64,000 bases of DNA, taken from contig JAXLVN010000003.1 in assembly GCA_046328995.1 (NCBI GenBank), positions 431,784 through 495,783 of the forward strand, in the 5' to 3' direction. The translations under genes and the position numbers were made by a program. The notes under the pieces are model-generated. The model was not told the DNA's origin. It did not search any database and worked only from the letters and a program-made list of their open reading frames with translations. Source of the stretch: Candidatus Kapaibacterium sp. GTDB lineage: Bacteria > Bacteroidota > Ignavibacteria > Kapaibacteriales > UBA961. Shown in pieces: positions 1 through 46,831 of the stretch (its first letter is position 1; every line of letters starts with the position of its first letter).

Positions 1-472
1 ACGGCTTGTCGGAGGCAAGGAGAGCGAGGAACTGCTGCTTCGTCATTCCTGATTGTGTTGGGGCGGCAGAATTGGCGGTTGTGACGGGGAGTCCGGCTGC
101 ATTCCATTTCATAATACCGCCTTGTAATTCATAGACTTCCTTGTATCCTGAAGATCGCATTTTACTCGCAGCCGCTGCGCTTCGAGCGCCGCTGAGGCAA
201 TAGACAAGCACCGGCTTCGATTTATCGACGTGAGCGATTTGTGTATCGAAAGAATCACCGTTCCAATCAATATTCATCGCGTTTTGGAGATGACCTTTCG
301 CGAATTCTGCCGGCGTACGAACGTCGATAATAGGTGCTGATGGCAATGCTTTGATTTTCGCAGCAAAGTCATTCGCTTCAAGCTTCGTTTGGGCGTTTTT
401 GGACTGTTCGCCTGTGCAGCTATTAGCGAGAAATGCGAGAATTACGAGAACGATAACGCTGTATTTTTTCAT
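1..472 (-). CDS. Rhodanese-domain lipoprotein; the 3' end is truncated by the window edge. Start codon at 470-472 overlaps the trxA stop in an ATGA arrangement.
   Basis: The reverse-complement translation begins [19 protein letters not shown], a lipoprotein signal with lipobox Cys. It continues ...[24 protein letters not shown]...[15 protein letters not shown], the rhodanese active-site Cys loop. Confidence 0.75.
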
Positions 473-780
473 GCAGTTGTATTGGAATATTGATTAATAA
501 TCTGTTCGAGTGTTCGAGCCGGTACCACGCCGGACTGCCGCCATTTAATTTCACCATTTTTGAAGAGAATCAGCGTCGGCACGCCACGAATTTGGTAGCT
601 TTCGGCTGCTTTTGGATTGGTATCGACATCAATTTTGATGATCATTGCTTTGTCACCGACATGAGTTTTGACTTCATCCAAAATCGGCGCCATCATCTTG
701 CACGGACCGCACCATTCAGCCGAAAAATCGACAAGTGTTGGCGTATCTCGTTGAATAAGCTCAGAGAATTTGGGTTTCAT
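469..780 (-). CDS. trxA: Thioredoxin
   Basis: 103 aa with the canonical WCGPC active site and thioredoxin-length fold. Confidence 0.9.
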
Positions 781-1234
781 GGGCTAATAAAATTGTAGGA
801 TGCATTGTTACTGTAGATTTAATTGAATTCGAAATTAAACACGCCGCTTCCGATTTCTGAATCACCCGTTCAGCGCGCTCGCGGTCTTTTTCATGGACGA
901 TGACCACGGTCGGTTCGAGGATAATTTCCGTCATAAGAAATTTCCCATCTACTTGCTCCAGCTTGCCCTTGGACTTACAGCTAAAGCGAAGAAACTCTAA
1001 TTTGGAATTCTCGGCAATTGCGAGGAAGGTTGTCATCAAACAGCTACTGACCGAGGCGGTAAAGAGATGTTCGGGTGACCAAATCCCGGGGATTCCTTTC
1101 GGGAATTCCGGTGGGGTGGCTACTTCGATGCAACTGCTTGCGTCGCCGGTCGAGAGCTTGAGTTCGGGCGAACACATCATGCCCTTGCGTTCTTGATTCC
1201 ATTCAACATCGATTGAATAATAATGAGCTTCCAT
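761..1234 (-). CDS. OsmC/Ohr-family peroxiredoxin-like protein
   Basis: 157 aa with two conserved Cys (..[10 protein letters not shown].. and ..[10 protein letters not shown]..), typical of the OsmC/Ohr fold. Overlaps trxA by 20 nt in the same orientation. Confidence 0.6.
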
Positions 1235-1268
1235 AGTTGTAATTATAGTATATGTAATGAGTTGTCAA

Positions 1269-1517
1269 TTATTTCTGCTGCACTTCTTCGTAGTCGATCA
1301 TATCGAGGTCATTCGTATTTGCAGGCGCTTGCGGCACCGCACAGCTTGATGTGCCGCAGCAGCCGGTATTAGTAACTGCTTGAAAGAGAAAGAATACAGC
1401 AATAAAACCCGAAAAAGTGTCATGCATTTGAATTGCCTGCACGCCGATAAAAATACCAAGCCCGAGACGCAGCCAGCGCATGAAATGCCAACCGGTAAGA
1501 ACGGTGTGAATAGTCAT
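1269..1517 (-). CDS. Small two-TM membrane protein with a C-terminal Cys cluster (CCGTSSC); DUF2892/YgaP-C-terminal-like
   Basis: 82 aa with two hydrophobic helices followed by TGCCGTSSC. Shares 4 nt with the downstream rhodanese gene, so likely in the same operon. Confidence 0.45.
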   Translation of the reverse strand: MTIHTVLTGWHFMRWLRLGLGIFIGVQAIQMHDTFSGFIAVFFLFQAVTNTGCCGTSSCAVPQAPANTNDLDMIDYEEVQQK

Positions 1518-1834
1518 GATAGCTTCCCTTGAAGACTCTGCCAGCTGCCACCATTATGGACATTCGTATAACCATTGGACTTGAGAATGCCTTTGGCTGT
1601 AGCACTGCGCATACCTGAGGCACAGCAGGTAATGATCGGCGTATTTTTGTCTTTGAATTTGCTGAGGTTATTGCTTAATTGATCCACCGGTATATTGATT
1701 GAATTTTTAATATGTCCGCTTGCATATTCACCGTTGGAGCGAACATCGACAATGAGGGCTCCCTGCGAGGCGAGCTCCCGGTAATCGACCGGAGTGCCGC
1801 CTCCGAATATCGTTTTGAAGAGTTGAATGATCAT
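1514..1834 (-). CDS. Rhodanese-domain protein (single domain). I prefer the internal start at 1834; the ORF runs on to 1894.
   Basis: ...IVDVRSNGEYASGHIKNSINIP...IITCCASGMRSATAKGIL, a CxxGxR active-site loop. The start at 1834 avoids a 49-nt overlap with the upstream gene. Confidence 0.7.
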   Translation of the reverse strand: MIIQLFKTIFGGGTPVDYRELASQGALIVDVRSNGEYASGHIKNSINIPVDQLSNNLSKFKDKNTPIITCCASGMRSATAKGILKSNGYTNVHNGGSWQSLQGKLS

Positions 1835-1845
1835 TAGAATAAGTA

Positions 1846-2121
1846 TTAAGATTGTAAATAATTTACATCGAGCCACGAGCCGCCGTTGTAGCATTCGATG
1901 CCTTGCTGAGACAGATACCGTTGCGCTTGTCCGCTGCGGTTACCCGAAGCACAGCAGAGGACTAACGGTAGGGTAAACTGCTTCAGCTCGTCAACACGCT
2001 GCGGTATCTCCTGCAAGGGGATGTTGATTGAACCAACGACATTGCCGCCCATGAATTCGCCATAGGACCGTACATCGACTACGGTGCCTTTTTTTTCTTT
2101 AATGATTTGTTCGAGAGTCAT
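1846..2121 (-). CDS. Rhodanese-domain protein (single domain)
   Basis: 91 aa: ..VVDVRSYGEF..GSINIP...LVLCCASGNRSGQAQRYL, a rhodanese catalytic loop. Confidence 0.75.
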   Translation of the reverse strand: MTLEQIIKEKKGTVVDVRSYGEFMGGNVVGSINIPLQEIPQRVDELKQFTLPLVLCCASGNRSGQAQRYLSQQGIECYNGGSWLDVNYLQS

Positions 2122-2442
2122 ATGTATTTCTCATAGAATGTTATTGAATGCATTGTATTACGTTGGCGGTGAATTTCTCTGAATCGCACTCACCCTTCAC
2201 TCTGTACGATGATGCTTCCGGATAGCACACCGATCGAGAGGCGGGGGAGAATTTACGGAATACTTCGCTCTGAGTGCGCGTCGCTGAAAGAGCAAATATC
2301 CGAGACTCATCATCGCCGGTAAATTCGATTGTATATCTCTGTGCTTTGTGTGGTTGCTTTAGGATCAGTAGCTTTTTATAGATGGAGATGGAGTTGGGTT
2401 TGATGTAATTTTCGCCCTTCTATACCTTGACCTTCGCCGCAC

Positions 2443-3918
2443 CTAGACTGCTTTATACTGAGCCATCATGCCCGATTCTTCATGTTCCAGATTATGGCAA
2501 TGGTAGAGGAATTTTCCAGTAAAGCCATCAAATGGAATCAATACACTTACTTTTTCACCCGGCATGCAGAGCACGGTGTCTTTCCAGCCGGCTTCGAGCG
2601 GTGAGAGAGCTTCTCTACCACCGGTGCGGCTGAGAATCTGAAACAGCACGCCATGGACATGCATCGGGTGCGGTTCTTTGCCATTGGAATTGTCAAAAGT
2701 CCATTTCTCCACTGTGCCGCGGGTGACCGTCACGTCAATACGTTGAGAATCATAGACATTGCCATTGATCGTGTGCTGCATCATTCCCGAGGAACTGTTC
2801 ATGGAATGCGTGTTCGCAATGTCAAAACTGCGGGAACTTGTTGCCATGGCTTCTGTTAAAGGAGCAATAGCCGAGAGCGAAGATGGCATCGAGAATGTAT
2901 CATTTCCGGTAGTGGTAATGGTAAATTTCATAATCTTGAATTCCTGCTGACCCTGTGAAGTACCTCCGTCAAAACCCTTGCTTACTAAATAGATCTCCGA
3001 GTAGGGAGCTAGTGTGCTGAAATCGACTATCAGATCCGCACGCTCCCCGGGACCGAGGATCAGAGAACGTACTTCTACCGGCCGTGGGAGTAGTCCGCCA
3101 TCATTTCCGATCACCGTAAACTTGGCATTGTTGGAGAGTGCGAGGTTGTAAATCCTTGCATTAGAACCATTAAGCACCCGAACTCGGTACTGCGCCGTGG
3201 TTACGTCCTGATACGGCGCGTAGAGTCCGTTGACGAGGATATACTCTCCCATATAGCCGGTCATTTGTTCCATCATGCTTGGCGCATAGGTAAATCTCCC
3301 CGATGCGATACGTTTATCCTGAATCACGAGGAAGAGTTCGCGGAGTCCATAGGGTAAATTCAGCGCTGATTCTTCGCTGTCATTGACCACCATGAGTCCT
3401 GCCAGCCCCTGAAATACCTGTTTTGCTGTGGTGCCTTCGGCATGCGGATGATACCAATACAGACCCGCCCGTTGTGCAATTGTGAATGAATAGGATGTTG
3501 ATTTTCCCTGACTTATGCTGTTATCCGGGTGCCCGTCCATAGTGGCCGGCACCTTGAGTCCATGCCAGTGAATATTGGTTGCTTCGCTGAGGGTATTCGA
3601 CAGGGTAATCGATACATTTTGTCCAGATTGCACGCGGATACTCGGTCCCAAAATACTGCCTGCCTGATAGCCAAAGCCGTTAATTGTGCCGAAACCCGGA
3701 AGGGGCATGGATACTTCCTGCGCTGCGAGTGTCATCGAAGAGTTACCGGTAGTCGGCGGCATCGTAAGCGGAGTCGTGAAATTACCCTCGGTTACAGATA
3801 CCGGATGTCCGGTGGCCATGGTATTTTCCGGCATGCATGACGATAGAAAGGGCACTGTGCCGCCGGCCAGGACTCCTGCTGAAGCCAACGATAGTTTAAG
3901 AAAGTCTTTGCGATTCAT
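2443..3918 (-). CDS. Multicopper oxidase (CueO/laccase-like) with a Tat-type signal. The ORF continues upstream to 4239, but I place the start at MNRKDFLK.
   Basis: Copper-ligand motifs HWHGLKVP...DGHP, HPH and, near the C-terminus, HCHNLEHEESGMM. The N-terminus MNRKDFLKLSLASAGVLAGG is a twin-arginine-like (RK) signal. Confidence 0.8.
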   Translation of the reverse strand: MNRKDFLKLSLASAGVLAGGTVPFLSSCMPENTMATGHPVSVTEGNFTTPLTMPPTTGNSSMTLAAQEVSMPLPGFGTINGFGYQAGSILGPSIRVQSGQNVSITLSNTLSEATNIHWHGLKVPATMDGHPDNSISQGKSTSYSFTIAQRAGLYWYHPHAEGTTAKQVFQGLAGLMVVNDSEESALNLPYGLRELFLVIQDKRIASGRFTYAPSMMEQMTGYMGEYILVNGLYAPYQDVTTAQYRVRVLNGSNARIYNLALSNNAKFTVIGNDGGLLPRPVEVRSLILGPGERADLIVDFSTLAPYSEIYLVSKGFDGGTSQGQQEFKIMKFTITTTGNDTFSMPSSLSAIAPLTEAMATSSRSFDIANTHSMNSSSGMMQHTINGNVYDSQRIDVTVTRGTVEKWTFDNSNGKEPHPMHVHGVLFQILSRTGGREALSPLEAGWKDTVLCMPGEKVSVLIPFDGFTGKFLYHCHNLEHEESGMMAQYKAV

Positions 3919-3991
3919 AGTTGTATGTTTCTTTTCGTCTTCAGAGAGGAACCTCGTCGCACGTCGGACAGTCGTCCATCTGACCGTACAA

Positions 3992-4633
3992 TCACCAGGC
4001 GCCGGTCTCTTTGGGACTATTGATAATGGTGTCGAATTCCGCTTGTGAGATAAATTGCGCTGTATAGGCGCCGCCGGAGAGTAATAGTTGACTGTAAAAT
4101 GAACGTAGATGATTCCTGCTGCCCTTGGTGAGATTTTCGTACACGAACCGTATATCTTGATTATCACTTTTTGCAAGCTGCTTGTGAAGATCAAAAATAT
4201 CGAGGTCTTCGATAGTCGCACCGACGGTATAGGCATCAAGCAAACTTTTGCTGCCTTGCGCTACCAATTGAGTGTATAATACCTGAAGTGCACTATCAGC
4301 GTACTCACCGGCTCCACGGCTCCCAACAGGGTCCGTGATAGAGTATTTGTTTAATACCGTCAGCACGGCATCGGTATGAGTCTGTTCACTCGATGCGATA
4401 TTTGAAAAAATTGTCGTATTCCACTTTATATAGAGAGCTGTATAGACATCCCGGGCGAGCTTTTCTTCTTCTCTCATATAGATCAGACCCTTGAGCTCAT
4501 CGGCGCTGATGGCTTCTTGAGGAAAGGCGTTGATCTGACTCGTCCTATCGGGATAGGGCGATGTGCTGTTGTTTTGACAGCCCTGAACCACAGCACCGAG
4601 GGCAACGATGAAGATGATAAGGTACGATTTCAT
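3992..4633 (-). CDS. DUF2202-like ferritin-like-domain lipoprotein. Start taken at MKSYLIIF.; the upstream ORF extension is ignored.
   Basis: Lipoprotein signal MKSYLIIFIVALGAVVQGC, then a four-helix ferritin-like pattern (..EEEKLARDVY..E..H). Lies immediately upstream of the MCO in the same orientation. Confidence 0.5.
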   Translation of the reverse strand: MKSYLIIFIVALGAVVQGCQNNSTSPYPDRTSQINAFPQEAISADELKGLIYMREEEKLARDVYTALYIKWNTTIFSNIASSEQTHTDAVLTVLNKYSITDPVGSRGAGEYADSALQVLYTQLVAQGSKSLLDAYTVGATIEDLDIFDLHKQLAKSDNQDIRFVYENLTKGSRNHLRSFYSQLLLSGGAYTAQFISQAEFDTIINSPKETGAW

Positions 4634-4683
4634 AGGATAGATAAATAGTTCATACAAATAAGCTTGTACCAATACGACATAGG

Positions 4684-4896
4684 TCAGGATCCTGTCGTCG
4701 AGGACTTTGGCTTTTGAAATAAATTCAGCAGCAGACCGCCCATGAGGGCGCCATAGGCGGTGCTGTTGAGGGGACGGGACGTGATAGCGCATGTGCCGCT
4801 TTCACACCCGACGAAGGAATAATACGCATAGCCACCGACGGCTCCGAGCAGTACTCCAATGATCGTCAATCTATAGGTTCGGAAGAATTTTTTCAT
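4684..4896 (-). CDS. Small two-TM membrane protein with a GCESGTC motif
   Basis: 70 aa: MKKFFRTYRLTIIGVLLGAVGGYAYYSFVGCESGTCAITS...GALMGGLLLNLF. Sits 5 nt downstream of the PDO-rhodanese gene in the same orientation. Confidence 0.45.
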   Translation of the reverse strand: MKKFFRTYRLTIIGVLLGAVGGYAYYSFVGCESGTCAITSRPLNSTAYGALMGGLLLNLFQKPKSSTTGS

Positions 4897-4901
4897 AGAG
4901 C

Positions 4902-6323
4902 TCAGAGGAGAGTCGTAGGGCAGACATAGTCGGAAATTTGAAATTCACCGGAACGCTTAATCGCAGCGAATCCGCCGTTGACGTCAATTAAGTTGTTGAA
5001 TCCACGTGCTTTGAGTATCGAGATGAATACCATCGAACGGTATCCGCCGGCGCAGTGGACATAGTAGGTGCGATCTTTGCTTATCAGACTCATGCTTTCA
5101 TCGATATAGTCGAGCGGGGCATTGACGGCGCCGATGATATGTTCGGAATTGAATTCACTCGCCTTCCGTACATCGAGAATATTAATACTTCCGGACGCAT
5201 GTGCTGCTGCAAATTCTTCGACATTCACTGTTGGAATGGTATCGAGAGAATAGCCCTCCTGCACCCAAGCAGCTGTGCCGCCTTTCAAAAATCCTATTGC
5301 ATGATCATACCCTACGCGTGCCAGCCTGGTGATGATTTCCTCTTCACGACCGGGCTCGGCTATGAGCAGAATATCCTGCGTAATATCCTTGACCAATGTG
5401 CCGACCCAGACGGCAAAGCTGCCGTCGATACCGATGTTTATCGATCCCGGAATAAAACCCTTGCTGAATTTTTCGGCGGCACGGGTGTCGATGACCACGG
5501 GTCTATTCGTCGAAATAACTGCTTCAAATTCCTTGGCATTGAGAAAATGCATGCCTCGCTCTAATACGTCGTCAAAGCTGTCGTAGCCGGTAATATTCAT
5601 CACCACATTTTTAGGGAAATAGCCCGGAGGCGGCATGAGCCCCGTGAGAATTTCATTGATAAAATCTTCTTCACTAAGATCCGGTCGCAGCGCATAATTC
5701 GTTTTTTTCTGATTGCCGAGCGTGTCGGACGTTTCTTTGCTCATGTTTTTACCGCATGCACTACCCGCGCCGTGAGCCGGATAGACGATCAGATCATCAC
5801 TGAGGGGCATGATTTTGCGATGCAGAGAGTCGTACAGATGCGCTGCTAACTTCTCCTGAGTCATTTCGGCTATCACATGCTGCGCAAGGTCGGGACGCCC
5901 TACATCACCAATAAACAACGTGTCTCCTGTGAAAATTGCCTGCTCTTTGCCGTTCTCATCAATCAAAAGATAACAGCTGCTTTCCATCGTGTGCCCCGGA
6001 GTATGAATGAGGCGGATGGTGGCATTTCCAAGCGTAAATTCCTGCCCATCTGTAGCGATGAGTGCGTCAAAACCCGTCTTCATGAGCGTCGGACCATAGA
6101 CAATCGTCGCACCGGTCGCTTTGGCCAAATCGATATGACCCGAAACGAAATCAGCATGAAAGTGCGTTTCAAATATATATTTTATGACAGAATTACGTTT
6201 TTTGGCAAGCTCCAGATACGGCTTGATTTCACGCAATGGATCGATGATGGCTGCTTCGCCGTTACTTTCAATATAATATGCGCCCTGAGCAAGGCAACCG
6301 GTATAGATCTGTTCGATATTCAT
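4902..6323 (-). CDS. Persulfide dioxygenase (MBL-fold, ETHE1/CstB-like) fused to two rhodanese domains
   Basis: N-terminal MBL metal-binding motifs (HFHADFVSGH, ..HTPGHT..), followed by two rhodanese modules (...VVIDTRAAEKF..GFIPGSINI...; ...ILDVRKASEFNSEHIIGAVNAP....YYVHCAGGYRSM). The 473-aa length fits CstB-type fusions. Confidence 0.8.
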   Translation of the reverse strand: MNIEQIYTGCLAQGAYYIESNGEAAIIDPLREIKPYLELAKKRNSVIKYIFETHFHADFVSGHIDLAKATGATIVYGPTLMKTGFDALIATDGQEFTLGNATIRLIHTPGHTMESSCYLLIDENGKEQAIFTGDTLFIGDVGRPDLAQHVIAEMTQEKLAAHLYDSLHRKIMPLSDDLIVYPAHGAGSACGKNMSKETSDTLGNQKKTNYALRPDLSEEDFINEILTGLMPPPGYFPKNVVMNITGYDSFDDVLERGMHFLNAKEFEAVISTNRPVVIDTRAAEKFSKGFIPGSINIGIDGSFAVWVGTLVKDITQDILLIAEPGREEEIITRLARVGYDHAIGFLKGGTAAWVQEGYSLDTIPTVNVEEFAAAHASGSINILDVRKASEFNSEHIIGAVNAPLDYIDESMSLISKDRTYYVHCAGGYRSMVFISILKARGFNNLIDVNGGFAAIKRSGEFQISDYVCPTTLL

Positions 6324-6377
6324 ACGTTGTTCCTTTATAGAATATGATGAGAGTACTGAGTAATTGTCAATTCGTAC

Positions 6378-6983
6378 CTATAAAATCTGCTTGTGCCCGA
6401 CATAGCGTACAATTGCCGCCGGACCCTGATGATACTTGCCTTCCTCGAGCGTAACATGCTCGGAAACAAGAAGGTCGGTATGCAACTCTTCGAAATCCTC
6501 TGCCAGGAGCGCTTCGGTGTAGAGCATCGTAGGGTCTTTAGGACCACCGGAACTAAACCCAAGCTGATCCGGATGAAATGCTTCGAGGATTATCGTGCCG
6601 CCGGGCTTGAGCCACTGCACCATCTTGCGATGAATCAGTCGCCGGTCGGCAGCAGAGAAGTGTGCGTAAATCAAGGCAATTGCATCAAACATAGCGGCGG
6701 GATATTCTTCCGTGAGAGCATCGGCGAAATGATATGAGAGTTCGACACCACGTGCCTGTGCCCATTGAAGTGCTTTTCGCTTACCCATCTCACTGAGGTC
6801 GAATGCCTCGACCGTCCAGCCTTGCTCGGCTGCATAGACGGCATTGCGTCCCTCACCCTCGCATGGGAAGAGTATATGCCCCGGACGAGGCAGCTTCCTC
6901 AGCTCACCGGCAAAAAACACATTGGGTTCGGTCCCGAATGCATATTCATGAGCGCTGTAGCGTTCGTTCCAAAAATTATTCAT
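6378..6983 (-). CDS. Class I SAM-dependent methyltransferase, TehB/thiol-methyltransferase-like
   Basis: 201 aa with motif I ..ILFPCEGEGRNAVYAAEQGWTVEAFDLSE.., closely resembling the TehB GxGxGRN motif, then a D/E-loop and motif II. Confidence 0.65.
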   Translation of the reverse strand: MNNFWNERYSAHEYAFGTEPNVFFAGELRKLPRPGHILFPCEGEGRNAVYAAEQGWTVEAFDLSEMGKRKALQWAQARGVELSYHFADALTEEYPAAMFDAIALIYAHFSAADRRLIHRKMVQWLKPGGTIILEAFHPDQLGFSSGGPKDPTMLYTEALLAEDFEELHTDLLVSEHVTLEEGKYHQGPAAIVRYVGHKQIL

Positions 6984-7007
6984 AGGTATAGTAATTTTGA
7001 AGAAACA

Positions 7008-7379
7008 TTACTTCTGCAAGAACATTTTAATAGCAATCATGACGAGCACCACCGCAAAGATTTTCCGAAGTATATCTTGTGGTATGTGTGATACATATTT
7101 AGCACTTATAAACGCACTGATAAAAAATGCCACACCCAATATTACCGCCGTCTTGATATCGGCATTGCCTGCTTTGTAGTACTGATAGGCGGCAAGCGAA
7201 CCGACCGGCATCACAAGCATCAATAACGTCGTGCCCTGCGCCATTTGCTGCGAGTAGCCGAGGAAGAGTACAAGTGCGGGAATTATGACGACCGCTCCGC
7301 CTAGCCCCAAAAAACCGCTGAGCATTCCACCTACAATCCCGATAAGGGCGATGATGATAAAGTTGTTGAGTTCCATCAT
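7008..7379 (-). CDS. TauE/SafE-family (sulfite/anion exporter) half-size membrane protein
   Basis: About 123 aa, four predicted TM helices, and the glycine-rich ..GIVGGMLSGFLGLGGAVVIIP.. signature of the TauE/SafE/DUF81 family. Confidence 0.6.
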   Translation of the reverse strand: MMELNNFIIIALIGIVGGMLSGFLGLGGAVVIIPALVLFLGYSQQMAQGTTLLMLVMPVGSLAAYQYYKAGNADIKTAVILGVAFFISAFISAKYVSHIPQDILRKIFAVVLVMIAIKMFLQK

Positions 7380-7582
7380 TCGGCCTTTTTCTTGGTCGAA
7401 ATTCCAAATGGCAGGTAGAGAGGGCATACGCCGACAAAACTTGTCAGTATAAAAACTCCGGATAAAATCAACAAGATAACGGCAGCGGTGCCGGTAATCT
7501 GATTGGCAAAATAAAGACTCACAATTGCAAGCGCTGCGATAATGCGAGCGGCTTTGTCGAGGGTTCCCATGTTCGGCTTCAT
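7376..7582 (-). CDS. DUF2892 (YgaP C-terminal-like) small membrane protein. Start taken at the internal MKPNMGTLDKA.
   Basis: About 68 aa: MKPNMGTLDKAARIIAALAIV....GVCPLYLPFGISTKK, the typical DUF2892 pattern. Stop overlaps the TauE start (ATGA). Confidence 0.6.
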   Translation of the reverse strand: MKPNMGTLDKAARIIAALAIVSLYFANQITGTAAVILLILSGVFILTSFVGVCPLYLPFGISTKKKAE

Positions 7583-7678
7583 GATAATAACGGAATAATG
7601 AATAAATACAATTGAACTGTTTGACTGACTTTCTGATACAAAACTACGGCTCTCACAAAACAATGTCTGTGATGTCTG

Positions 7679-8287
7679 TCACAGAAGGATAATTTTATTA
7701 CGGGAGAGGGTAATCAGCTCTTCATGTTCCATTATTTTGAGCACGCGACTCACTGCCTCACGGCTGACACCGAGTTCGTCAGCAAGCTGCTGATGCGTTA
7801 TCGCTACATCCTTTGACTGATACAAGGCCGTTTTTTGCCGAAGTAATTGCAGCAATCGTGAGTCGAGCTTCTGAAACGCAAGAGCATTGACGACGCCGAG
7901 CAATTCCTCAAATCTCTTTTGATAGAGCATAAACATGAAATCGCTCCATTCGGGGTACTCACGAATCCACTCACTTGCTTTCTGCACCGGAATCAGCAGC
8001 AATTCTACATCTTCCTCGACAATGGCCTTGATTTTACTGGTGTCGTGGTGAATTCCGGCAAGAAACGACATAATACAGCTCTCGCCCGGCTTGATGTAAT
8101 ACAGTAGAATTTCACGTCCTTCTTCGTCTGTCCGAACCACCTTGATACTACCTTTTATTACAATCGGTATTGAATGAATATACGAATTGATATCCAAAAT
8201 GACCGTTTCGGCCGGAAATGACTTTACATGACCCGAGGCGTATGCCGCTTCGTTCAAAAGCGGCTGAAAAATAGCTGTCTGATTCAT
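7679..8287 (-). CDS. Crp/Fnr-family transcriptional regulator. An alternative upstream start exists at 8317.
   Basis: N-terminal cNMP-binding-like beta-roll and C-terminal HTH (..ITHQQLADELGVSREAVSRVLKIMEHEELI..). Confidence 0.75.
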   Translation of the reverse strand: MNQTAIFQPLLNEAAYASGHVKSFPAETVILDINSYIHSIPIVIKGSIKVVRTDEEGREILLYYIKPGESCIMSFLAGIHHDTSKIKAIVEEDVELLLIPVQKASEWIREYPEWSDFMFMLYQKRFEELLGVVNALAFQKLDSRLLQLLRQKTALYQSKDVAITHQQLADELGVSREAVSRVLKIMEHEELITLSRNKIILL

Positions 8288-8749
8288 AGCAATTGTTTGG
8301 AGAAATGAATGGAACACTGTGCGCGCCGATTGCTGCGTGAAGGCAGGTGCAGCGCGCGCTTTGAGAACGGAAGATTACTTTGATTGTTCGAATTGTCCTG
8401 CTCCTGACCGTGTTTATGACCGGATGAAGCAAACGCACCCACTTCTCTGCATCCAAAACTACGGATGTTCAGCAGCTTGAACAATGACTTATGTCATATT
8501 TCGAGTCCGGTAGTAAAGCAGAGCACTGCGTCGTCTGCACATACAGTTTTTTTCGCCAAACTCACCTCCAGAGCCATAGGCGCAGCAGTGGCGCAAAAGG
8601 GGAGAGAATCGATGCTGTCAGCTGATAATATCGGACGATTTCCGGCTGCTGCTGCTATACAAGGAATCCGCGATTCGGGTGTTTTGTATAGACAAACCCC
8701 GAAAAAACTCGTATTTTGCGCAAAAAATTCCATCATCTGAAGGTCTGTC

Positions 8750-34819: not shown

Positions 34820-36028
34820 TTATTCCTTCACCAATTTCTGCATCACCGATTCACGACCGCATTCAGCGCGAAGGAGATAGACTCCGCTTGCCAGATTGCT
34901 TGTTGGGATATGTGCGACGTCATCCGAACATTCAACAGACTGCATCAATTCACCCATGACGTTTACGAGGGTCAGACGGATGGTGCGCCCATGCCATTGA
35001 GCCGGAAAACGCAGGGATGTGCCTGTATTTCCTGCGGGTTGCGGGAAAATTTTCACTGAATTTTGCGCTTCGTATTCTTCTTCTTCTACACCAACGGGCG
35101 TATAGGGCTGGCGATAGATGCCGTCATCGGTGCCGGCGATCAGATAATCTTTGGTAATGATGAGACTATTGACACTCGGATTACCTAAATTTTGACGGAA
35201 TTGCTGCCACGAGCGGCCACTGTCAGCCGAGGCAAAGACGCCGTCTTTACCCGTACCGACATAGAGATAATTATATTTTCCACCCATGGTGATTGCACGG
35301 ATTTCGCGTCCTGCGATGCCGGCACTGATGTCGGTCCAGGAGCTGCCGCTGCTGAGTGAACGGAATGCGCCGCCGCCAAGTGTACCGGCATACACAAGGG
35401 AAGTGCTTGGAGAATAGAGAGCTTTGACAAATGGATTCGTAACACCGGTATCGGACTTGAGCCATGTGGCGCCGTTATCAGCCGAACGGAAAATACCATT
35501 GCCGAAGGTGCCGGCAAAAATGGTTTCTCCATTCATTACCATAGAATAAATCCATTCATTGCTTAGCCCTTTTGCTTGCCAATTTGCTCCATTGTCTGTC
35601 GAGACATAGATGCCTGTCACATTCGTACCGGCAAAGAGATAGGCGCCGTCACGTACCATGAGCGACTGTACGGAAATTCCTTTCGGAATATTGCCGTTGG
35701 CATCGGTCCAGTTCTGTCCGTTGTCGTCCGAGCGAAGCACACCTTCGCCGGCTGTCCCGCAGAACATTTTATCGCCTTTTGCGATCAGCGTGAAAATCGT
35801 GCGTGTCGGTAATGCTATGCGTTTCCAAGTGTTACCATCGGATTCGAGCTGATAGACACCTTCATTAGTGCCCGCGAAAAGAACGCCGTCTTTCTCGGCA
35901 AAGCAGTAAGCGGAGGTGCCTTGGAAGGACATTTTTTCCCAATTCTGCGCCGATACAGTATTGTTCAAACACAGAAAGAAGGCAAGAAGCAGGGGTAAAA
36001 ACGCAGGTAAACGTCGTAGAATAGTCAT
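34820..36028 (-). CDS. BNR/sortilin-Vps10-like repeat protein with a T9SS C-terminal sorting domain
   Basis: Repeated ..S.D.G.TW.. BNR motifs (SDDNGQNW, STDNGANW, SADNGATW, SADSGRSW). The C-terminal 80 aa (KIFPQPAG...GVYLLRAECGRESVMQKLVKE) matches the T9SS type-A CTD pattern. Confidence 0.7.
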   Translation of the reverse strand: MTILRRLPAFLPLLLAFFLCLNNTVSAQNWEKMSFQGTSAYCFAEKDGVLFAGTNEGVYQLESDGNTWKRIALPTRTIFTLIAKGDKMFCGTAGEGVLRSDDNGQNWTDANGNIPKGISVQSLMVRDGAYLFAGTNVTGIYVSTDNGANWQAKGLSNEWIYSMVMNGETIFAGTFGNGIFRSADNGATWLKSDTGVTNPFVKALYSPSTSLVYAGTLGGGAFRSLSSGSSWTDISAGIAGREIRAITMGGKYNYLYVGTGKDGVFASADSGRSWQQFRQNLGNPSVNSLIITKDYLIAGTDDGIYRQPYTPVGVEEEEYEAQNSVKIFPQPAGNTGTSLRFPAQWHGRTIRLTLVNVMGELMQSVECSDDVAHIPTSNLASGVYLLRAECGRESVMQKLVKE

Positions 36029-36387: not shown

Positions 36388-39300
36388 ATGAGAATACTTG
36401 GTACTCTTTTGTTCATGGCTTGTATCGTTTTGCAATTAAACGCTAATGCGCAGTCCTCCGGCTGGGCGGATTCGGCGGGCTACAAGCAGCAAATTATGCC
36501 GACGAAGTCGATTCGTCAGGTGCTCTATTCTCCAAGTGGAGACAGACTCTATAGTGTCCATCTCGATACACTCTATAGAATTAGTCATTGGGATGCTGTA
36601 ACGGGGAAACTGCTTCGGAAGCAATCTATTGATTCTTCAGGATATAAGTTACTGTACTCAGTGACAATCGCAAATGATGGATTGACTTACACGGTTTGTG
36701 GTTTGCAGGTGAATGATAGTTGTACAGCTAAAATCTATTCTCTCAACACTGATGTTCTTTTGAATAGCGTAACGTTGAAGTTAAAAAACAGCTCTGAAGT
36801 ACAGGCAAGTACGGCTATCTATGACTCAACGCTTAGAATTTTGCGGGTAAGGTTCGAGGCAAGTGATGTCTATGGCATGCCGCCAAGCGGATCTCGATAC
36901 GGCGGCGTATTTGAATACAGTCTTGTTGATGGTAAACAACAGTTAAAACATTCAGAAAATGGTGTAACGAACAAATGGAGTACTGCTAGTGGAATAAATG
37001 TGTCAGCATGGGTTGGATTTTACCATAAAGTAATACTTAGCTACAAAGGTGAGGTTATAGAAGATACCCGGTGGATGAAATCTATACTTTGGAATGACAC
37101 TATCCCAATTCGAGAAGACCTGCCATTTGATATTCTAGGTTCGCATCCTATATTTAGTCAGTATGCACTGAATTATTTCCCTTTACTTACTCCCGACGGG
37201 AAGCACTTTTGTATGATTGATCATCAGGTGTTGCGTCACAGAACTCTCTCGCCATATGCGTTGGTGTCCACGATTACATTGCCATTTATACCGACTTTTG
37301 CCCAAGTGGCTCCTACGAATAATCATATTCTTATGAGTTCGGGACGTTCTATTATCCTTTATGACATTTTTGCCAATTCTATCACCGATACGCTTTCTCT
37401 GACATTCGAGAGTATTTCGGCGTCATTCAGGCCTCAATCGCATACGGTGGTATTTGCATCACGTGACGGATACATGCGCACTCTTGAGTTGCCTTTTTCA
37501 ATGCCTAGTATTCCCAATGACTTTCGTGCGGACAGTACGACAGCATATACTGATTCTGCCATTACCTTTACCGTGACAACACGCCGAGTACCTCTTCGCC
37601 TTCGATGGGATTTTGGCGATACTACCACGGATTCGACCCTAAGTGTTATTCACCGATATAAATCGCCCGGCACATATTCTGTTCAATTATTTATCACCGA
37701 CTCATCCGGCACGATAGATACGATTATGAAGAAAGACTATATTTCAATACTTCCATCGTTGATTCCTGATTTTAGCGGAACGCCGCAGTATGGCATATCT
37801 CAGCTTGACGTGCAATTCACCGATAAATCCAAAGGGAATATTATTACATGGTTGTGGGATTTTGGAGATAAACAGGTCGATTCCGTGCAGAATCCGAAGC
37901 ATACATACAGTGGTCATCGCTATTACAATGTGACGTTGACTATCAGCGACGGATTTACGGTTGCTACAATTGTGAAACCTATGTTTATCAATCTCGATAC
38001 AATTCCAAGTAACTCGATAATGGTACGGCAAAGGTGGATTTCTGGTGCTCTCTCATATATTGGTACCCCGGGAAATTGGAGGCGAATCGAAAACACATTC
38101 TCAAAAGGAATTCTTGGTAATGATTCCAAACTCTATGTATATAGTCGAGAATGTGGTGTTGAATCGTATAAAGGTCCTGATCCAACTCCTTTAGTATCGT
38201 ATAATTGGCAACAAAGTATTTCGGTATTTGACAGTTCGACAAGTCAGTGGAAAATCGATAAATCCTATTCACCCCCTGATTACTCACCTATGAATATCTG
38301 TCAAGGAACAAACTCGGCATACAGTGGATTCCAAATTATTCGATATAGAAATCGGTATGTTACATCTTTTACTGGCTGGGTGAGGTCATTGTCATATATT
38401 ACCATTCCTTCAATAATGTTCTTTTCTAATGGGCGAGTTTTTACACCCTCCGGCTGGACACATGACTTCAATGGTGCATTTTTGCCGGACGGCACTGATA
38501 TCTACCTCTTCAATCACGGTACTTCTACCTCCATTCAGTTTTTTATTGAAGATAGTGTTCTCATCGCCCGAGACTCGATGGTCGGTGAAGTAATGAAGCC
38601 GCTCGTATCCATTGATTCACAGAATGTTAGTATTATTTCTAACCTTTATTCCGGCAAGGGGGATAGTACGCGATGGATGATTGTACGCACCTATTCATCA
38701 GAAGGGCTGCTGCTTAGTGAGAAGAAGATTGTAAAAACGCGGACTATCCATTTGACTGATGCAGCGAACTTCGGTTTGGGGGATTTTCTAGTCACCGGTT
38801 GGGTTACTTCAACCGACTCTCTTGGAATTAAGCACGACTCCGGGTATATCGCCAAGCTTGGTTCAGACGGTCGCATCGCCTGGGAGTATTGTGCACCAGC
38901 GTGGAAACAATTTAAGAAAATAGAAAAACTCAGCACGGGACACTATGCCGCTTGGGGCATTCCTCTCGATGGATTTAATCATGGTTTCCTTGCTTTCCGA
39001 AGCGACGGAACAATCCTTTCGGACAATCGGCTTGTCGGCGCACAGAACGGATTTTCGCCGTCGGATTTTGTGGTTGGTGCAGGTACCAATTCGCTGTGGT
39101 TCATAGGTTCGGAAAGTGTGCCGAATCAGGGTCAGCGAGCAGCGGTGTATTTATGTACGAATCCCATGTCAGCAGTGACTTCCGTAGCTGAGGGAGAGGC
39201 GTCGGATCGTGCACCGTCAACATTCTCGGCGGAGGTATTTCCGCTTCCTGCCGTTGACCGAATGACGGTACGGCTGAGCATTCCCCGCGCAGCAAACGTG

Positions 39301-39474
39301 CGTGTATCGATGGTATCGGCTCTTGGCACGGAGCAGGAATATCCGGCGGAACATGTCAATGCAGGTATGAATGAATTCACGCTATCGACCGCTGCCCTCC
39401 CGACCGGGATGTACATTCTCTGTATTCGTTTCGATAGCGAAAGGTGCGTGTGTCCGGTAGTTGTCCTTCGATGA
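36388..39474 (+). CDS. Large secreted protein (paralog A) with two PKD domains and a T9SS C-terminal sorting domain
   Basis: Signal peptide; WDFGDTTTDS...YKSPGTYSVQL and WLWDFGDKQVDSV..HTY..YYNVTLTISDG PKD signatures; C-terminal VFPLPAVDRMTVRLS...GMYILCIRFD T9SS CTD. Confidence 0.75.
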   Translation: MRILGTLLFMACIVLQLNANAQSSGWADSAGYKQQIMPTKSIRQVLYSPSGDRLYSVHLDTLYRISHWDAVTGKLLRKQSIDSSGYKLLYSVTIANDGLTYTVCGLQVNDSCTAKIYSLNTDVLLNSVTLKLKNSSEVQASTAIYDSTLRILRVRFEASDVYGMPPSGSRYGGVFEYSLVDGKQQLKHSENGVTNKWSTASGINVSAWVGFYHKVILSYKGEVIEDTRWMKSILWNDTIPIREDLPFDILGSHPIFSQYALNYFPLLTPDGKHFCMIDHQVLRHRTLSPYALVSTITLPFIPTFAQVAPTNNHILMSSGRSIILYDIFANSITDTLSLTFESISASFRPQSHTVVFASRDGYMRTLELPFSMPSIPNDFRADSTTAYTDSAITFTVTTRRVPLRLRWDFGDTTTDSTLSVIHRYKSPGTYSVQLFITDSSGTIDTIMKKDYISILPSLIPDFSGTPQYGISQLDVQFTDKSKGNIITWLWDFGDKQVDSVQNPKHTYSGHRYYNVTLTISDGFTVATIVKPMFINLDTIPSNSIMVRQRWISGALSYIGTPGNWRRIENTFSKGILGNDSKLYVYSRECGVESYKGPDPTPLVSYNWQQSISVFDSSTSQWKIDKSYSPPDYSPMNICQGTNSAYSGFQIIRYRNRYVTSFTGWVRSLSYITIPSIMFFSNGRVFTPSGWTHDFNGAFLPDGTDIYLFNHGTSTSIQFFIEDSVLIARDSMVGEVMKPLVSIDSQNVSIISNLYSGKGDSTRWMIVRTYSSEGLLLSEKKIVKTRTIHLTDAANFGLGDFLVTGWVTSTDSLGIKHDSGYIAKLGSDGRIAWEYCAPAWKQFKKIEKLSTGHYAAWGIPLDGFNHGFLAFRSDGTILSDNRLVGAQNGFSPSDFVVGAGTNSLWFIGSESVPNQGQRAAVYLCTNPMSAVTSVAEGEASDRAPSTFSAEVFPLPAVDRMTVRLSIPRAANVRVSMVSALGTEQEYPAEHVNAGMNEFTLSTAALPTGMYILCIRFDSERCVCPVVVLR

Positions 39475-39630
39475 TGGAACGATGGAATGTTGGAATGTTG
39501 GTAAGATTTTAATGTAGAATAGGTATTATAACAACTTAATGAGAAAAAAGAAAGATAGCGCACTGTTTGAGATATAGTGAAAACTTATTGGAAAGATTAG
39601 TAAAAGCTCCAAGAACTTTCAGGAGAATAT

Positions 39631-42600
39631 ATGAAAATCATTTATCTATTTTTTATAGCCATATTATGCATTGTAGATCATCAATCTTCCAATGCGCAGT
39701 CCTCCGGCTGGGCGGATTCGGCGGGCTACAAGCAGCAAATTATGCCTCTCAAATCTATCATGCAGGTGCAGTATTCACCGGGAGGAGATACGTTGTACAC
39801 GGTGAGCCGGGACTCGCTCTACAGGATCGATCACTGGGATGCTGTGACGGGTAAGCTGCTGAAAAGACAGACAATAGTAGCGAAAAAGTTAGTGAAGATG
39901 CTGTCGGTAACCTTGTCAATGGATAGACAGACTTATGTCGTCTGTGGTACCGAATCAACCAATACGCTTCATTTTCTCATTTATTCAATGACGACCGACA
40001 GCTTGATGTTTGAAATTAAGCCCCAAAGGTCATTTGGCAATAGCAATTCATATGTGGATTGTTCGGGAGATGTCGAGACGTCGTTGGGCATCATTACCAT
40101 ATATTTCACGCTTGTGGATAATCAACTAGGCCCTGATGGTCCGAGCGGTAGTCGTAACGGCCAGATTTCGCGCTACAAAATTCAGGATACTACCCTACAA
40201 TTGATAGGGACGCATTTGGGAGCGGTAAAAAAAGTCGCCTATACACCAAACAAAAACATCTACACATGGATATCCTACCAGGTAGTAAAAAAGTATTTTA
40301 GATCTAGCCTGTTAAACCATTCTGAATCTATGAACTACAACTGTTCAATGAACGATTCTCTTGTGATACAAAACGAACTACAATTTGAATGGGAGGGTTC
40401 TAATGTTGTAAATAGTGATTATGCATTGAGTTATTATCCGGTGCTGACGCCGGACGGTGCACATTGTTTTTTTATAGAAGGACCACATCTGCATCAGTGG
40501 TCAGTGGCTCCTTTTGCATTTCTCTCGACGAAGAATATTGGATTTAGCTCTACGTATGTGCTTGCCGAACCTGAGGGTACCCATGTCATGTTTGTCAAAG
40601 GTAAGACCTTATATTTTTACCATATAGCGTCATCGACAATGTCAGATACCTTTCAATTGACTTCACCACCGGTAATGTGTGCATTCCGTCCAAATACTAG
40701 GGAAATGGCATATTGTACAGCGTCAGGGAACCTATGTATCAGTAATCTCAAGTATCGAATTCCCTCGATTCGTACTACATTTACAGCGACACACACACTT
40801 CTGTACAAAGATTCGACAACAGTTTTCTCCGTAGTCAGGAGCAAGAAGTATCGGCACTATGAGTGGAATTTTGGCGATGGTAGGCTAGGAAAGGGTGAAG
40901 TGGTGCCGCATATATATCAAACGAGCGGAACATATACTATCGTATTGATAGCCACCGACAGTCTAGGGCAGAGTGATACAATAGAGCGCAGAGACTACGT
41001 GCGGGTATTGCCGATGTTAGAACCACGCTTTACCGGCTCGATTCGCTATGGCAACGCTCCTCTTACGACACAGTTTACCGATGAGTCTTTAGGAGCAATC
41101 ACCTCGTGGGAATGGAATTTTGATGATGGAACGAAAGATACTGTGCCGCATCCGAAGCATACTTTTCAGGAACGACGGTATTATTCTATCACATTGAAAA
41201 TCTCGGACGGACTAAGTACCAAAGTGCTGACCAAGTTTGCTTTTGTGAATGCAGATACGATGTATGTGAATACTGTGCGTATTCATACACGACTAATCGA
41301 TGCTACGCAAAATCTAATACGAGGAATAGAAGGGTCATATCAATCCGATGATTGGTATAAAAACAAATATACAAAGGGCGGACTTACGGAAGCAGGAGAT
41401 CTCATTGTTTATAGATCTGAATGTTATACTCGTGTAGGTAGTTATGGTGCTACATTCTATTATCCCAAGCAAGGAATATTGTCAATCTCTGCCGATGCGA
41501 AACAATCAAGTACGTTTTTTTCTCAATTGGCTCATAATCCAAGTTCGTCAAATATTTGTGATATTACTTTTACTAATCCCGGTCAAATGATAATCCGTCC
41601 CCGAGATGGCTCGTATATATCTTCGTTTGATCCAATTTATTGGACTGCACCGAGTGGTCAATCGCCTCATGGAATATATATTTCCAAAGTAGGATTTTTT
41701 AAGCCTATCGGGTGGTCGAGTAATTTCGATGCTGCATTCCTACCGAATGGTAACGATGTGTATGTCTTTCGTACTGTCAAAGGAACAATCATAGATTTCT
41801 TCAAATCTGATACCATCCTCATCGCCCGTGACTCGATGGTCGGTGAAGTTATGAAGCCACTCGTTTCGATTGATTCTCAACAGGTAAGCATCATTTCTAA
41901 TCTCAATTCCGGCACAGGTGACAGTGCTCGATGGATCGTACAGCGGACGTATTCATCAGCAGGACAACTCCTTGAGGAAAAACATATCCTGAAGAATATC
42001 AGCAATGTACGTCTGATGGATGCAGCAAGTCTCGGCTGGGGAGAATTTCTCCTTTCAGGATGGGTCACGACGACCGATTCCCTCGGTGTTCGCCGTGACT
42101 CGGCATACCTCGCCAAGCTTGGTTCTGATGGCCGCCTTGCATGGGAGTATCTGACGCCTACGTGGCGGCAATTCAAGAAAGTAGAAAAACTGAGCACCGG
42201 GCATTATGCAGTCTGGGGAATTCCGCAGGATGGCTTTAATCATGGCTTTGTAGCGGTGAAGAGCGACGGAACAATCCTTTCGGACAATCGGCTTGTCGGC
42301 GCACAGAACGGATTTTCGCCGTCGGATTTTGTGGTTGGTGCAGGTACCAATTCGCTGTGGTTCATAGGTTCGGAAAATGTGCCGAATCAGGGACAACGGG
42401 GAGCGGTGTATTTTTGTACGAATCCCATGTCAGCAGTGACTTCCGTAGCTGAGGGAGAGGCCTCAAACGGCTTTCCGGCATCATTGTCGGCGACGGTGTA
42501 TCCACAGCCCGCCGTTCATAGTATGACAGTACGACTGACTGCGCCGCGAGGAGGAAAAGTTCGGGTTGCAATTGTATCAGCTTTGGGCACCGAACAGGTG

Positions 42601-42735
42601 TATCCGGAGGAAGAAGTCGAAGCAGGGACAAGAGAATTCATGATATCAACAGCAGCATTATCGACCGGAATGTACACACTCTGCCTACGTATGGACGGCG
42701 AAATGTGCGTGCGTCCGGTGGTGGTGGTGCGGTGA
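39631..42735 (+). CDS. Large secreted protein (paralog B of 36388..39474) with two PKD domains and a T9SS C-terminal sorting domain
   Basis: Same architecture as A: WNFGDG..GEVVPHIYQTSGTYTIVL and WEWNFDDGTKDTVPHPKHTF..YYSITLKISDG PKD signatures; C-terminal VYPQPAVHSMTVRLT...GMYTLCLRMD T9SS CTD. Confidence 0.75.
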   Translation: MKIIYLFFIAILCIVDHQSSNAQSSGWADSAGYKQQIMPLKSIMQVQYSPGGDTLYTVSRDSLYRIDHWDAVTGKLLKRQTIVAKKLVKMLSVTLSMDRQTYVVCGTESTNTLHFLIYSMTTDSLMFEIKPQRSFGNSNSYVDCSGDVETSLGIITIYFTLVDNQLGPDGPSGSRNGQISRYKIQDTTLQLIGTHLGAVKKVAYTPNKNIYTWISYQVVKKYFRSSLLNHSESMNYNCSMNDSLVIQNELQFEWEGSNVVNSDYALSYYPVLTPDGAHCFFIEGPHLHQWSVAPFAFLSTKNIGFSSTYVLAEPEGTHVMFVKGKTLYFYHIASSTMSDTFQLTSPPVMCAFRPNTREMAYCTASGNLCISNLKYRIPSIRTTFTATHTLLYKDSTTVFSVVRSKKYRHYEWNFGDGRLGKGEVVPHIYQTSGTYTIVLIATDSLGQSDTIERRDYVRVLPMLEPRFTGSIRYGNAPLTTQFTDESLGAITSWEWNFDDGTKDTVPHPKHTFQERRYYSITLKISDGLSTKVLTKFAFVNADTMYVNTVRIHTRLIDATQNLIRGIEGSYQSDDWYKNKYTKGGLTEAGDLIVYRSECYTRVGSYGATFYYPKQGILSISADAKQSSTFFSQLAHNPSSSNICDITFTNPGQMIIRPRDGSYISSFDPIYWTAPSGQSPHGIYISKVGFFKPIGWSSNFDAAFLPNGNDVYVFRTVKGTIIDFFKSDTILIARDSMVGEVMKPLVSIDSQQVSIISNLNSGTGDSARWIVQRTYSSAGQLLEEKHILKNISNVRLMDAASLGWGEFLLSGWVTTTDSLGVRRDSAYLAKLGSDGRLAWEYLTPTWRQFKKVEKLSTGHYAVWGIPQDGFNHGFVAVKSDGTILSDNRLVGAQNGFSPSDFVVGAGTNSLWFIGSENVPNQGQRGAVYFCTNPMSAVTSVAEGEASNGFPASLSATVYPQPAVHSMTVRLTAPRGGKVRVAIVSALGTEQVYPEEEVEAGTREFMISTAALSTGMYTLCLRMDGEMCVRPVVVVR

Positions 42736-46819: not shown

Positions 46820-46831
46820 GAGAAAAATCAA

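Follow-up and report, generated by a model that had tools for sequence, protein, structure and literature searches.

Why is a multicopper oxidase (MCO) encoded among genes for reactive sulfur species (RSS), directly behind the gene of a ferritin-like DUF2202 lipoprotein? The question is raised by a 64,000-nucleotide stretch of Candidatus Kapaibacterium sp. (assembly GCA_046328995.1, contig JAXLVN010000003.1, positions 431,784 to 495,783 of the forward strand), here called the window, in which positions 1-8317 hold a co-directional gene string on the minus strand. An initial annotation had singled out the MCO and the lipoprotein as a pair within this sulfur island and had offered either Cu(I) oxidation or polysulfide or thiosulfate oxidation as the periplasmic role of the enzyme. 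Comparison of related islands shows that DUF2202 is a conserved island gene and that the MCO is accessory. The MCO falls in a CueO-like clade of Bacteroidota type that is otherwise found in copper-resistance clusters. The reading that we favour, at about even confidence, is that the enzyme was recruited into the operon and may serve the sulfide-stress response as a periplasmic Cu(I) oxidase.

The multicopper oxidase and its relatives

The MCO gene (2443-3918, minus strand, as are all features of the island given below) encodes 491 amino acids. All three cupredoxin domains of the three-domain MCO class score above their Pfam gathering thresholds (Cu-oxidase_3, 99 bits; Cu-oxidase, 41.3; Cu-oxidase_2, 96.4; cutoffs 21, 21 and 20.4, respectively). 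Each of the four motifs HxHG, HxH, HxxHxH and HCHxxxHxxxxM is present, as HWHG (residues 117-120; 3559-3570), HPH (residues 157-159; 3442-3450), HPMHVHG (residues 417-423; 2650-2670) and HCHNLEHEESGMM (residues 473-485; 2464-2502), the last containing the type 1 (T1) Cys and His ligands and the axial Met. These align with HWHG, HPH, HPFHIHG and HCHLLEHEDTGMM of CueO, such that 12 of the 12 copper-binding motif positions of the E. coli enzyme are conserved. Just before the third motif (EPHPMH), two residues ahead of the first T1 His, stands a Glu that is invariant in the MCO clade. The Pfam domains and the CueO alignment bear out the initial description of this gene, and judging from its sequence the enzyme is intact, with all copper ligands.

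The N-terminus MNRKDFLKLSLASAGVLAGGTVPFLSSC (MNRKDFLKLS...PFLSSC) carries an RK variant of the twin-arginine (Tat) motif at residues 3-8 (R-K-D-F-L-K; 3895-3912), followed by the lipobox L-S-S-C with Cys28 (3835-3846). The Tat-like signal had been recognized in the initial annotation; the lipobox is an addition to it. Orthologues have RR at the same place (KRRNFIK, RRKDFIK or ERRDFLR against N-R-K-D-F-L-K in the window) and the lipobox Cys is conserved across the clade; the protein is a predicted lipoprotein with a putative Tat-type signal. Directly behind the lipobox lies the Met/His segment MPENTMATGH (3805-3834), a reduced form of a stretch that is far richer in Met in orthologues (MDMGNMNMGQ, for instance). 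At the place of the Met-rich insert of CueO there is a short Met/His loop, THSMNSSSGMMQH (2773-2811).

The best NCBIfam model for the protein is CueO (NF008205), with 348.5 bits in two stretches, and the FtsP and CopA/PcoA-type models score lower. Among solved structures the top match is PDB 8z59 (297 bits in a single stretch, residues 87-488), ahead of the CueO-type 6evg (261), McoP (255), lactic-acid-bacterial MCOs (248) and E. coli CueO (232); a Thermus MCO (219), SufI/FtsP (185) and CotA (184) follow. The NCBIfam score stays below the equivalog cutoff of 525 bits, the Met-rich insert is missing and the substrate-copper ligands of CueO are not conserved; the MCO is therefore best described, at the sequence level, as CueO-like and not as a canonical CueO orthologue. 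With CueO it shares the three cupredoxin domains, the 12 copper-motif positions and a putative Tat-type signal, and its Met-containing loops lie near the place of the Met-rich region. It differs in having RK in place of RR, followed by a lipobox Cys, and in having no copper genes nearby, whereas its orthologues adjoin Cus-type pumps and Cu-ATPases. The 514-residue protein of 8z59 likewise lacks the long Met-rich insert, and its name, bilirubin oxidase, suggests organic substrates; a literature search found no published functional account of it. A paper on copper in Bizionia was considered as support for this MCO clade and rejected, its MCO being a different, PcoA-like one.

The closest MCO homologue outside the species (P0002, 65% identity) is neighboured by HMA and HMBD genes and by additional MCOs with Por_Secre_tail (type IX secretion) domains. 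We surveyed 58 metagenome loci encoding relatives of the MCO, mostly at 48-67% identity, 43 of them with at least 1 kb of upstream sequence. At most of these an HMBD, HMA, second MCO or HMBD-DUF3347 gene adjoins the MCO; DUF2202, persulfide dioxygenase (PDO) or rhodanese genes stand beside it at none. The loci of P0017, from a Flavobacterium metagenome-assembled genome (MAG), and of P0027 both combine the MCO with HMBD, a CusCBA-type RND (resistance-nodulation-division) efflux system and a Cu P-type ATPase, while an AraC regulator is found at the P0017 locus only. In Bacteroidota copper clusters of this kind (MCO, HMBD/DUF3347, CusCBA and CopA; L129 and L130) the MCO is 58-61% identical to that of the window and has the same lipoprotein N-terminus and Met-rich segments, but none of their copper neighbours is found at the window MCO, which sits in an RSS operon. 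At the genome level, the neighbourhoods of the relatives are those of a periplasmic oxidase that detoxifies copper.

One of these clusters was also found in mobile company. In the Flavobacterium MAG contig L129 (2020-4210 and 10001-21479) the MCO/HMBD/CusCBA/AraC/Cu-ATPase cluster adjoins a tyrosine integrase and RteC and probably belongs to an integrative conjugative element.

The DUF2202 lipoprotein

The gene that directly precedes the MCO in transcription (3992-4633, 213 amino acids) is separated from it by a 73-bp spacer (3919-3991) and encodes a ferritin-like protein of the DUF2202 / COG4902 family. The protein matches PF09968 with 203.5 bits (cutoff 22) over profile positions 2-161 of 162 and is 55.6% identical over 178 residues to MJ0754 (PDB 3q4n/3q4o; COG4902), with which it has the family-invariant acidic and His residues in common. 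Because of this identity to a solved protein, we infer a four-helix-bundle fold and metal binding, as in a di-metal four-helix-bundle lipoprotein. E55-57, E83xxH86, E142, D145, D148 and H175, positions that are at least 99% conserved among 75 sequences from many phyla, are all present. Unlike MJ0754, the window protein has a signal peptide ending in AVVQGC19, with a lipobox Cys, and is thus predicted to be an exported lipoprotein. The PF09968 and MJ0754 matches and the VVQGC signal agree with the initial annotation, as does the orientation of the two genes, which lie with the rhodaneses of the island on the minus strand throughout. Both proteins are identical to neighbouring NCBI accessions, MFN8360671.1 (MCO) and MFN8360672.1, from a 544-kb contig of a Candidatus Kapaibacterium sp. 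MAG. A literature search found no functional paper on MJ0754 or DUF2202.

DUF2202 was surveyed at 67 loci of GTDB species representatives, ranging from Bacteroidota to CPR (candidate phyla radiation) lineages, Chloroflexota and Archaea, with up to 10 kb of flanking sequence; 48 of the 67 have 2 kb or more on either side. None of these loci has an MCO near DUF2202. A rhodanese or PDO gene lies within 10 kb at only three, which by a rough estimate is about the chance expectation. The neighbours are heterogeneous, and a dominant conserved neighbour was rejected, the largest cluster comprising 6 of the 67 loci (cytochrome c biogenesis, Ignavibacteria). Closer homologues adjoin Ferritin/TetR/RND genes (L132) or VIT1 (L133), and according to a preprint ferrosome clusters include a ferritin-like protein of the DUF2202 family. 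The role of DUF2202 is probably iron-related.

Three small genes without Pfam matches also recur by DUF2202, encoding a 136-residue protein with four transmembrane segments, a 129/131-residue transmembrane protein and a 95-residue cupin-like protein (L135, 6486-7623; L132, 201-611 and 4007-4402; L133, 7577-7987 and 8707-8994). Their contexts are Ferritin/TetR/RND genes, VIT1 and, in L135, the region 3′ of the MCO; they are a possible companion set of DUF2202.

Conserved and accessory genes of the sulfur island

A contig of an Ignavibacteria-labelled MAG (L070) is colinear with the window at 71-80% nucleotide identity. Two segments are found in the window only: 2122-3990, with the MCO, and 6324-7007, with a methyltransferase (MTase) gene. 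DUF2202 is present in six island lineages (the window, L070, L131, L135, L138/139 and L140/141). In four sister islands (L070, L131, L140/141 and L138/139) the MCO is missing and DUF2202 is followed directly by a rhodanese gene. L131, L140/141 and L138/139, whose DUF2202 proteins are 77%, 72% and 64% identical to that of the window, respectively, keep the order PDO-DUF6132-DUF2202. The MTase is likewise absent from MCO-less relatives wherever the region is visible (L070, L140, L138 and L137), and L137, a Chitinophagales island, has none of DUF2202, MCO and MTase.

The linkage does recur once, in the diverged island L135. Here the gene order is the same as in the window (Crp-YgaP-TauE-MTase-PDO-DUF6132-DUF2202-MCO), at protein identities of 54-80% (PDO, 80%; MCO, 64%; DUF2202, 63%). 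In L135, 58 bp separate DUF2202 from the MCO, against 73 bp in the window, and the two spacers are not alignable. No rhodaneses follow the L135 MCO; the genes on its 3′ side encode 136-residue and 129-residue transmembrane proteins and a 95-residue cupin, homologues of the neighbours of DUF2202 in L132 and L133. The MTase (6378-6983 in the window; 1768-2367 in L135) was found only in the two MCO-bearing islands, non-adjacent to the MCO in both, and has weak similarity to the chalcogen-methylating TPMT and TehB.

DUF2202 is thus a conserved island gene, the MCO is accessory and the MTase is a second accessory gene. A general linkage of the MCO to DUF2202 or to rhodaneses is absent, and the MCO/DUF2202/rhodanese module envisaged at the outset is not supported: the MCO is lacking from four otherwise colinear islands and the surveys returned no case at either 67 DUF2202 loci or 58 MCO loci. 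The initial annotation had named two findings that would speak against it, namely clustering of the MCO with canonical CueO and a linkage unique to this genome. The first holds in so far as the enzyme is CueO-like, with copper-cluster-associated relatives, but at 348.5 against 525 bits it is not canonical CueO; the second does not hold, given L135.

How the MCO came to be in two islands was addressed with neighbour-joining trees. PDO and DUF2202 alike give the clades (window, L131, (L140, L070)) and (L135, L138), each with exactly one MCO-bearing island. This distribution implies either that the MCO and MTase are ancestral, with two or more losses, or that they entered the same positions on two occasions. 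In the MCO tree the two island enzymes branch side by side at the base of the copper-cluster clade, their sisterhood being recovered in 73 of 200 bootstrap replicates and the grouping of P0004 with copper-cluster MCOs in 124 of 200. Divergence between the window and L135 is equal for the MCO (64%) and DUF2202 (62-63%), which fits co-inheritance without proving it. The junction spacers, which bear on whether there were one or two insertions, are not alignable among the window, L070/L140 and L135. Recent horizontal insertion of the MCO was rejected, since neither its GC content at third codon positions (GC3, 0.528) nor its codon-usage score departs from what is usual in the window, as were mobile-element scars: the gene has no flanking repeats and no transposase nearby, the only insertion sequence (IS) lying at 45.9 kb. 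A suspected co-occurrence of PDO P0269 and MCO P0066 on one contig was also rejected, the contig of P0269 (L136) being without an MCO.

Two further observations were made on the related islands. In L070 no gene was called at 6310-7729 because the PDO-rhodanese reading frame is split in two, by a frameshift or an assembly error. In the Chitinophagales MAG contig L137 (2532-8610 and 14210-20527) the base RSS island lies between copper and oxidase-assembly genes, with MbnP/MbnH-like genes and a CcoI-type Cu-ATPase on one side and a cbb3 ccoNOQP/GHIS cluster on the other.

In order of transcription, the window string begins with a Crp/Fnr-family regulator (7679-8317), a YgaP-like transmembrane protein (7376-7663), a half-size TauE/SafE family membrane protein (7008-7376), the S-adenosylmethionine-dependent MTase, a CstB-like protein with an MBL-fold (metallo-beta-lactamase) PDO-like domain and two rhodanese domains (4902-6323), a DUF6132 small membrane protein (4684-4896), DUF2202 and the MCO, with intergenic distances from -1 to 73 bp between Crp and the MCO. 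The DUF6132 gene lies immediately 5′ of DUF2202 in every DUF2202-bearing island checked for that stretch. A 321-bp non-coding gap 3′ of the MCO (2122-2442) has neither an Rfam match nor, on the minus strand, a terminator-like site, and a search for palindromic operator candidates gave nothing convincing. Beyond the gap follow two single-domain rhodaneses (1846-2121, 91 amino acids, directly 3′ of DUF2202 in the sister islands; and 1514-1894, an open reading frame (ORF) of 126 amino acids whose true start is probably further in), a membrane protein with a CCGTSSC motif (1269-1517), an OsmC-family peroxiredoxin-like protein (761-1234), a thioredoxin (469-780) and a lipoprotein rhodanese (2-472) truncated by the window start, with a homologue at L070 10608-11042. 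At least three island products (the MCO, DUF2202 and one rhodanese) are predicted exported lipoproteins.

Several of these genes have features of their own. Here and throughout the related islands, the TauE-family gene (7008-7427 in the window) is half the usual length (122-139 amino acids, profile positions 1-110 of 237). The CCGTSSC protein (82 amino acids) is kept in all related islands (53-80% identity), and neither Pfam nor NCBIfam has a family that it matches above threshold. The lipoprotein rhodanese continues beyond the end of its 144-residue L070 homologue and may be a rhodanese-thioredoxin fusion, comparable to a 238-residue gene in L137.

The string resembles the cst operons for sulfide and persulfide detoxification, such as that of S. 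aureus (cstR-tauE-cstA-cstB-sqr). It encodes a Lactamase_B domain with two Rhodanese stretches, a TauE protein and three further rhodanese genes, so that a CstB-type PDO-rhodanese, a TauE-family protein, extra rhodaneses and thiol-redox proteins are common to both. Whereas the cst operons have CstR and a sulfide:quinone oxidoreductase (SQR), the island has a Crp/Fnr-type regulator and no persulfide-sensing repressor of the CstR, BigR or SqrR type, and none of the window ORFs that were scanned resembles SQR. It has in addition the YgaP-like protein, DUF6132 and DUF2202, as well as the MTase and the MCO in two lineages. This comparison also draws on PMC12934615. The MCO arrangement thus amounts to a facultative variation on a familiar type of sulfide-detoxification operon, with an otherwise ordinary MCO of the copper-cluster type; it is no new sulfur enzyme system. 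A literature search turned up no account of a PDO/rhodanese island that includes an MCO, in agreement with the initial remark that the association is undescribed.

Elsewhere the window carries ordinary chromosomal genes (PlsY, a Reg_prop histidine kinase, MurG, GuaA, RseP, Dxr, RNase G, PBP2, polysaccharide genes and one IS4/5 transposase). The IS4/5-family DDE transposase (45903-46730, minus strand) adjoins a patch of low GC content at 46000-48000 (0.38, compared with about 0.48 in other parts), which includes a TPR-repeat gene (GC3 of 0.28) and probably represents foreign DNA with no relation to the island. Two neighbouring proteins of about 1030 amino acids each (36388-42735, plus strand) carry PKD domains and, because the nearby gene at 34820-36028 has a Por_Secre_tail, are probably type IX secretion cargo.

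Proposed role of the oxidase in the operon

Taken together, these results favour a model in which the region is a chromosomal, Crp/Fnr-headed operon that detoxifies RSS. Its conserved core consists of the YgaP-like membrane protein, half-size TauE, the PDO-rhodanese fusion, DUF6132, the DUF2202 lipoprotein, two rhodaneses, the CCG-motif membrane protein, OsmC, thioredoxin and the lipoprotein rhodanese, with the MCO as an optional extra gene directly 3′ of DUF2202. Because members of its clade lie in copper-resistance clusters, the MCO would most likely oxidize Cu(I) to Cu(II) in the periplasm and reduce O2 to water; it is possibly an Fe(II) oxidase as well. Sulfide, persulfides, sulfite and thiosulfate in the periplasm would turn Cu(II) into Cu(I), which is thiophilic and more toxic and would in turn poison exported cysteine-based sulfur-transfer proteins. 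A cuprous oxidase co-expressed with the sulfide response would remove this Cu(I), and DUF2202 would be a separate conserved island lipoprotein, not an obligate partner of the MCO. The Met/His-rich segments retained in the MCO support a copper role. In favour of the model, too, are the predicted exported lipoproteins of the island, at least three in number and including a cysteine-dependent rhodanese, and the copper-RSS cross-talk in regulation known from Acidithiobacillus caldus. Of the roles first proposed for the enzyme, the evidence favours Cu(I) oxidation and lends no support to polysulfide or thiosulfate oxidation.

Several points weigh against this model. Positions M355, D360, D439 and M441, the substrate-copper ligands of CueO, are aligned with N, N, G and E in the MCO, and the loop at the place of the Met-rich insert is about 42 residues shorter. 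The nearest solved homologue, 8z59, was deposited as a bilirubin oxidase, and Cu(I)-oxidase activity for the whole clade is a prediction. Copper sensor, efflux pump and chaperone genes are all absent from the 64-kb window, in which no Cus, CopA, HMA or HMBD homologues were found. The four sister islands manage without an MCO, so that any benefit is conditional. Finally, the MCO directly follows DUF2202 in two lineages despite differing downstream genes, a placement that hints at a tie to DUF2202 more specific than the model assumes.

The last point is the starting point of an alternative that we consider unlikely, in which DUF2202 and the MCO would form a functional periplasmic pair. The MCO would act as a ferroxidase or metallo-oxidase and DUF2202 would receive or sequester the oxidized metal; in a variant covered by the same estimate, DUF2202 would help to metallate the MCO. 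In sulfidic, micro-oxic surroundings, either form would shield the envelope from Fe(II)/Cu(I) chemistry. The MCO lies immediately 3′ of DUF2202, behind the short spacers of 73 and 58 bp, in two islands whose downstream genes differ, being rhodaneses in the window and the companion genes of DUF2202 itself in L135. The matching divergence of the two proteins is as co-inheritance predicts, and the association of DUF2202 elsewhere with Ferritin, VIT1 and (in a preprint) ferrosome clusters and the invariant Glu ahead of the first T1 His also speak for the pair. Set against these are the surveys, in which neither gene was found beside the other, the retention of DUF2202 without the MCO in four sister islands, and the copper proteins that are the usual partners of the MCO clade. 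The pairing is seen in two lineages only, with 73 of 200 bootstrap replicates for sisterhood of their MCOs, and these two cases face more than 120 negative loci. The ferroxidase/DUF2202 couple is weaker than the Cu(I)-oxidase reading.

The metallation variant takes its cue from Rhodobacter capsulatus, in which the upstream accessory gene cutF is reportedly needed for CutO (work attributed to Ozturk et al., 2021). The likeness to cutFOG is one of gene order, with the gene of a small exported protein ahead of that of a Tat-type MCO. DUF2202, however, is as far as known unrelated to CutF, and mostly occurs without an MCO.

We judge it similarly improbable that the MCO is a neutral passenger, an ordinary cuprous oxidase from copper resistance that settled, or survived, in a permissive spacer and has no relation to sulfur or DUF2202. 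Its patchy distribution, with one MCO-bearing island per island clade beside MCO-less sisters, would be expected on these grounds, as would the mobility of the MCO clade (the integrase and RteC of the Flavobacterium MAG) and the lack of conservation in the spacers flanking the MCO. A passenger would not be expected to occupy the same position and orientation, with short spacers, in a tightly packed co-directional string in two lineages, nor to retain all copper ligands at a divergence of 64% identity. In the window, moreover, the gene lacks a flanking transposase, integrase or repeats and does not stand out in codon usage or GC3, and in both islands it co-occurs with the MTase.

In a still more doubtful extension of the pair, DUF2202 and the MCO would be a two-component extracytoplasmic metal-oxidation and sequestration unit, the MCO as metallo-oxidase either feeding the di-metal four-helix-bundle lipoprotein or being matured by it. 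Bacteria of the Kapaibacteria type would have plugged this unit into their sulfide-stress operon together with a thiol or chalcogen methyltransferase. Direct oxidation of sulfide, polysulfide or thiosulfate by the MCO, as a new periplasmic sulfur-oxidizing activity, is very improbable: only the location in an RSS island beside exported rhodaneses speaks for it, while the relatives at 48-67% identity lie in copper clusters without sulfur genes, four sister islands have no MCO, the literature search found no MCO within a PDO/rhodanese gene cluster, and the copper-site architecture is that of an ordinary CueO/laccase-type MCO.

On the favoured reading, in which the MCO would remove periplasmic Cu(I), the locus bears on the link between copper and RSS. 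The two are chemically entangled, and the link has so far been documented mainly at the level of regulators, for example CsoR/CstR-type proteins and SscR of Acidithiobacillus caldus, in which cross-talk between copper and RSS regulation is documented (PMC12455602). An operon combining an MCO with PDO and rhodaneses would be a simple natural test system for a sulfide-induced periplasmic Cu(I) problem. Neither this point nor what follows for DUF2202 alters current understanding unless confirmed by experiment. DUF2202 is the more durable lead, as a protein with a solved structure in its family and a fixed member of the RSS operon across six lineages. If true, the two-component unit would assign DUF2202 a function for the first time and would tie RSS to metal homeostasis by a hard-wired genetic link. 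The membership of DUF2202 in the island gives a concrete phenotype to look for, the sensitivity of a DUF2202 mutant to sulfide, iron or copper.

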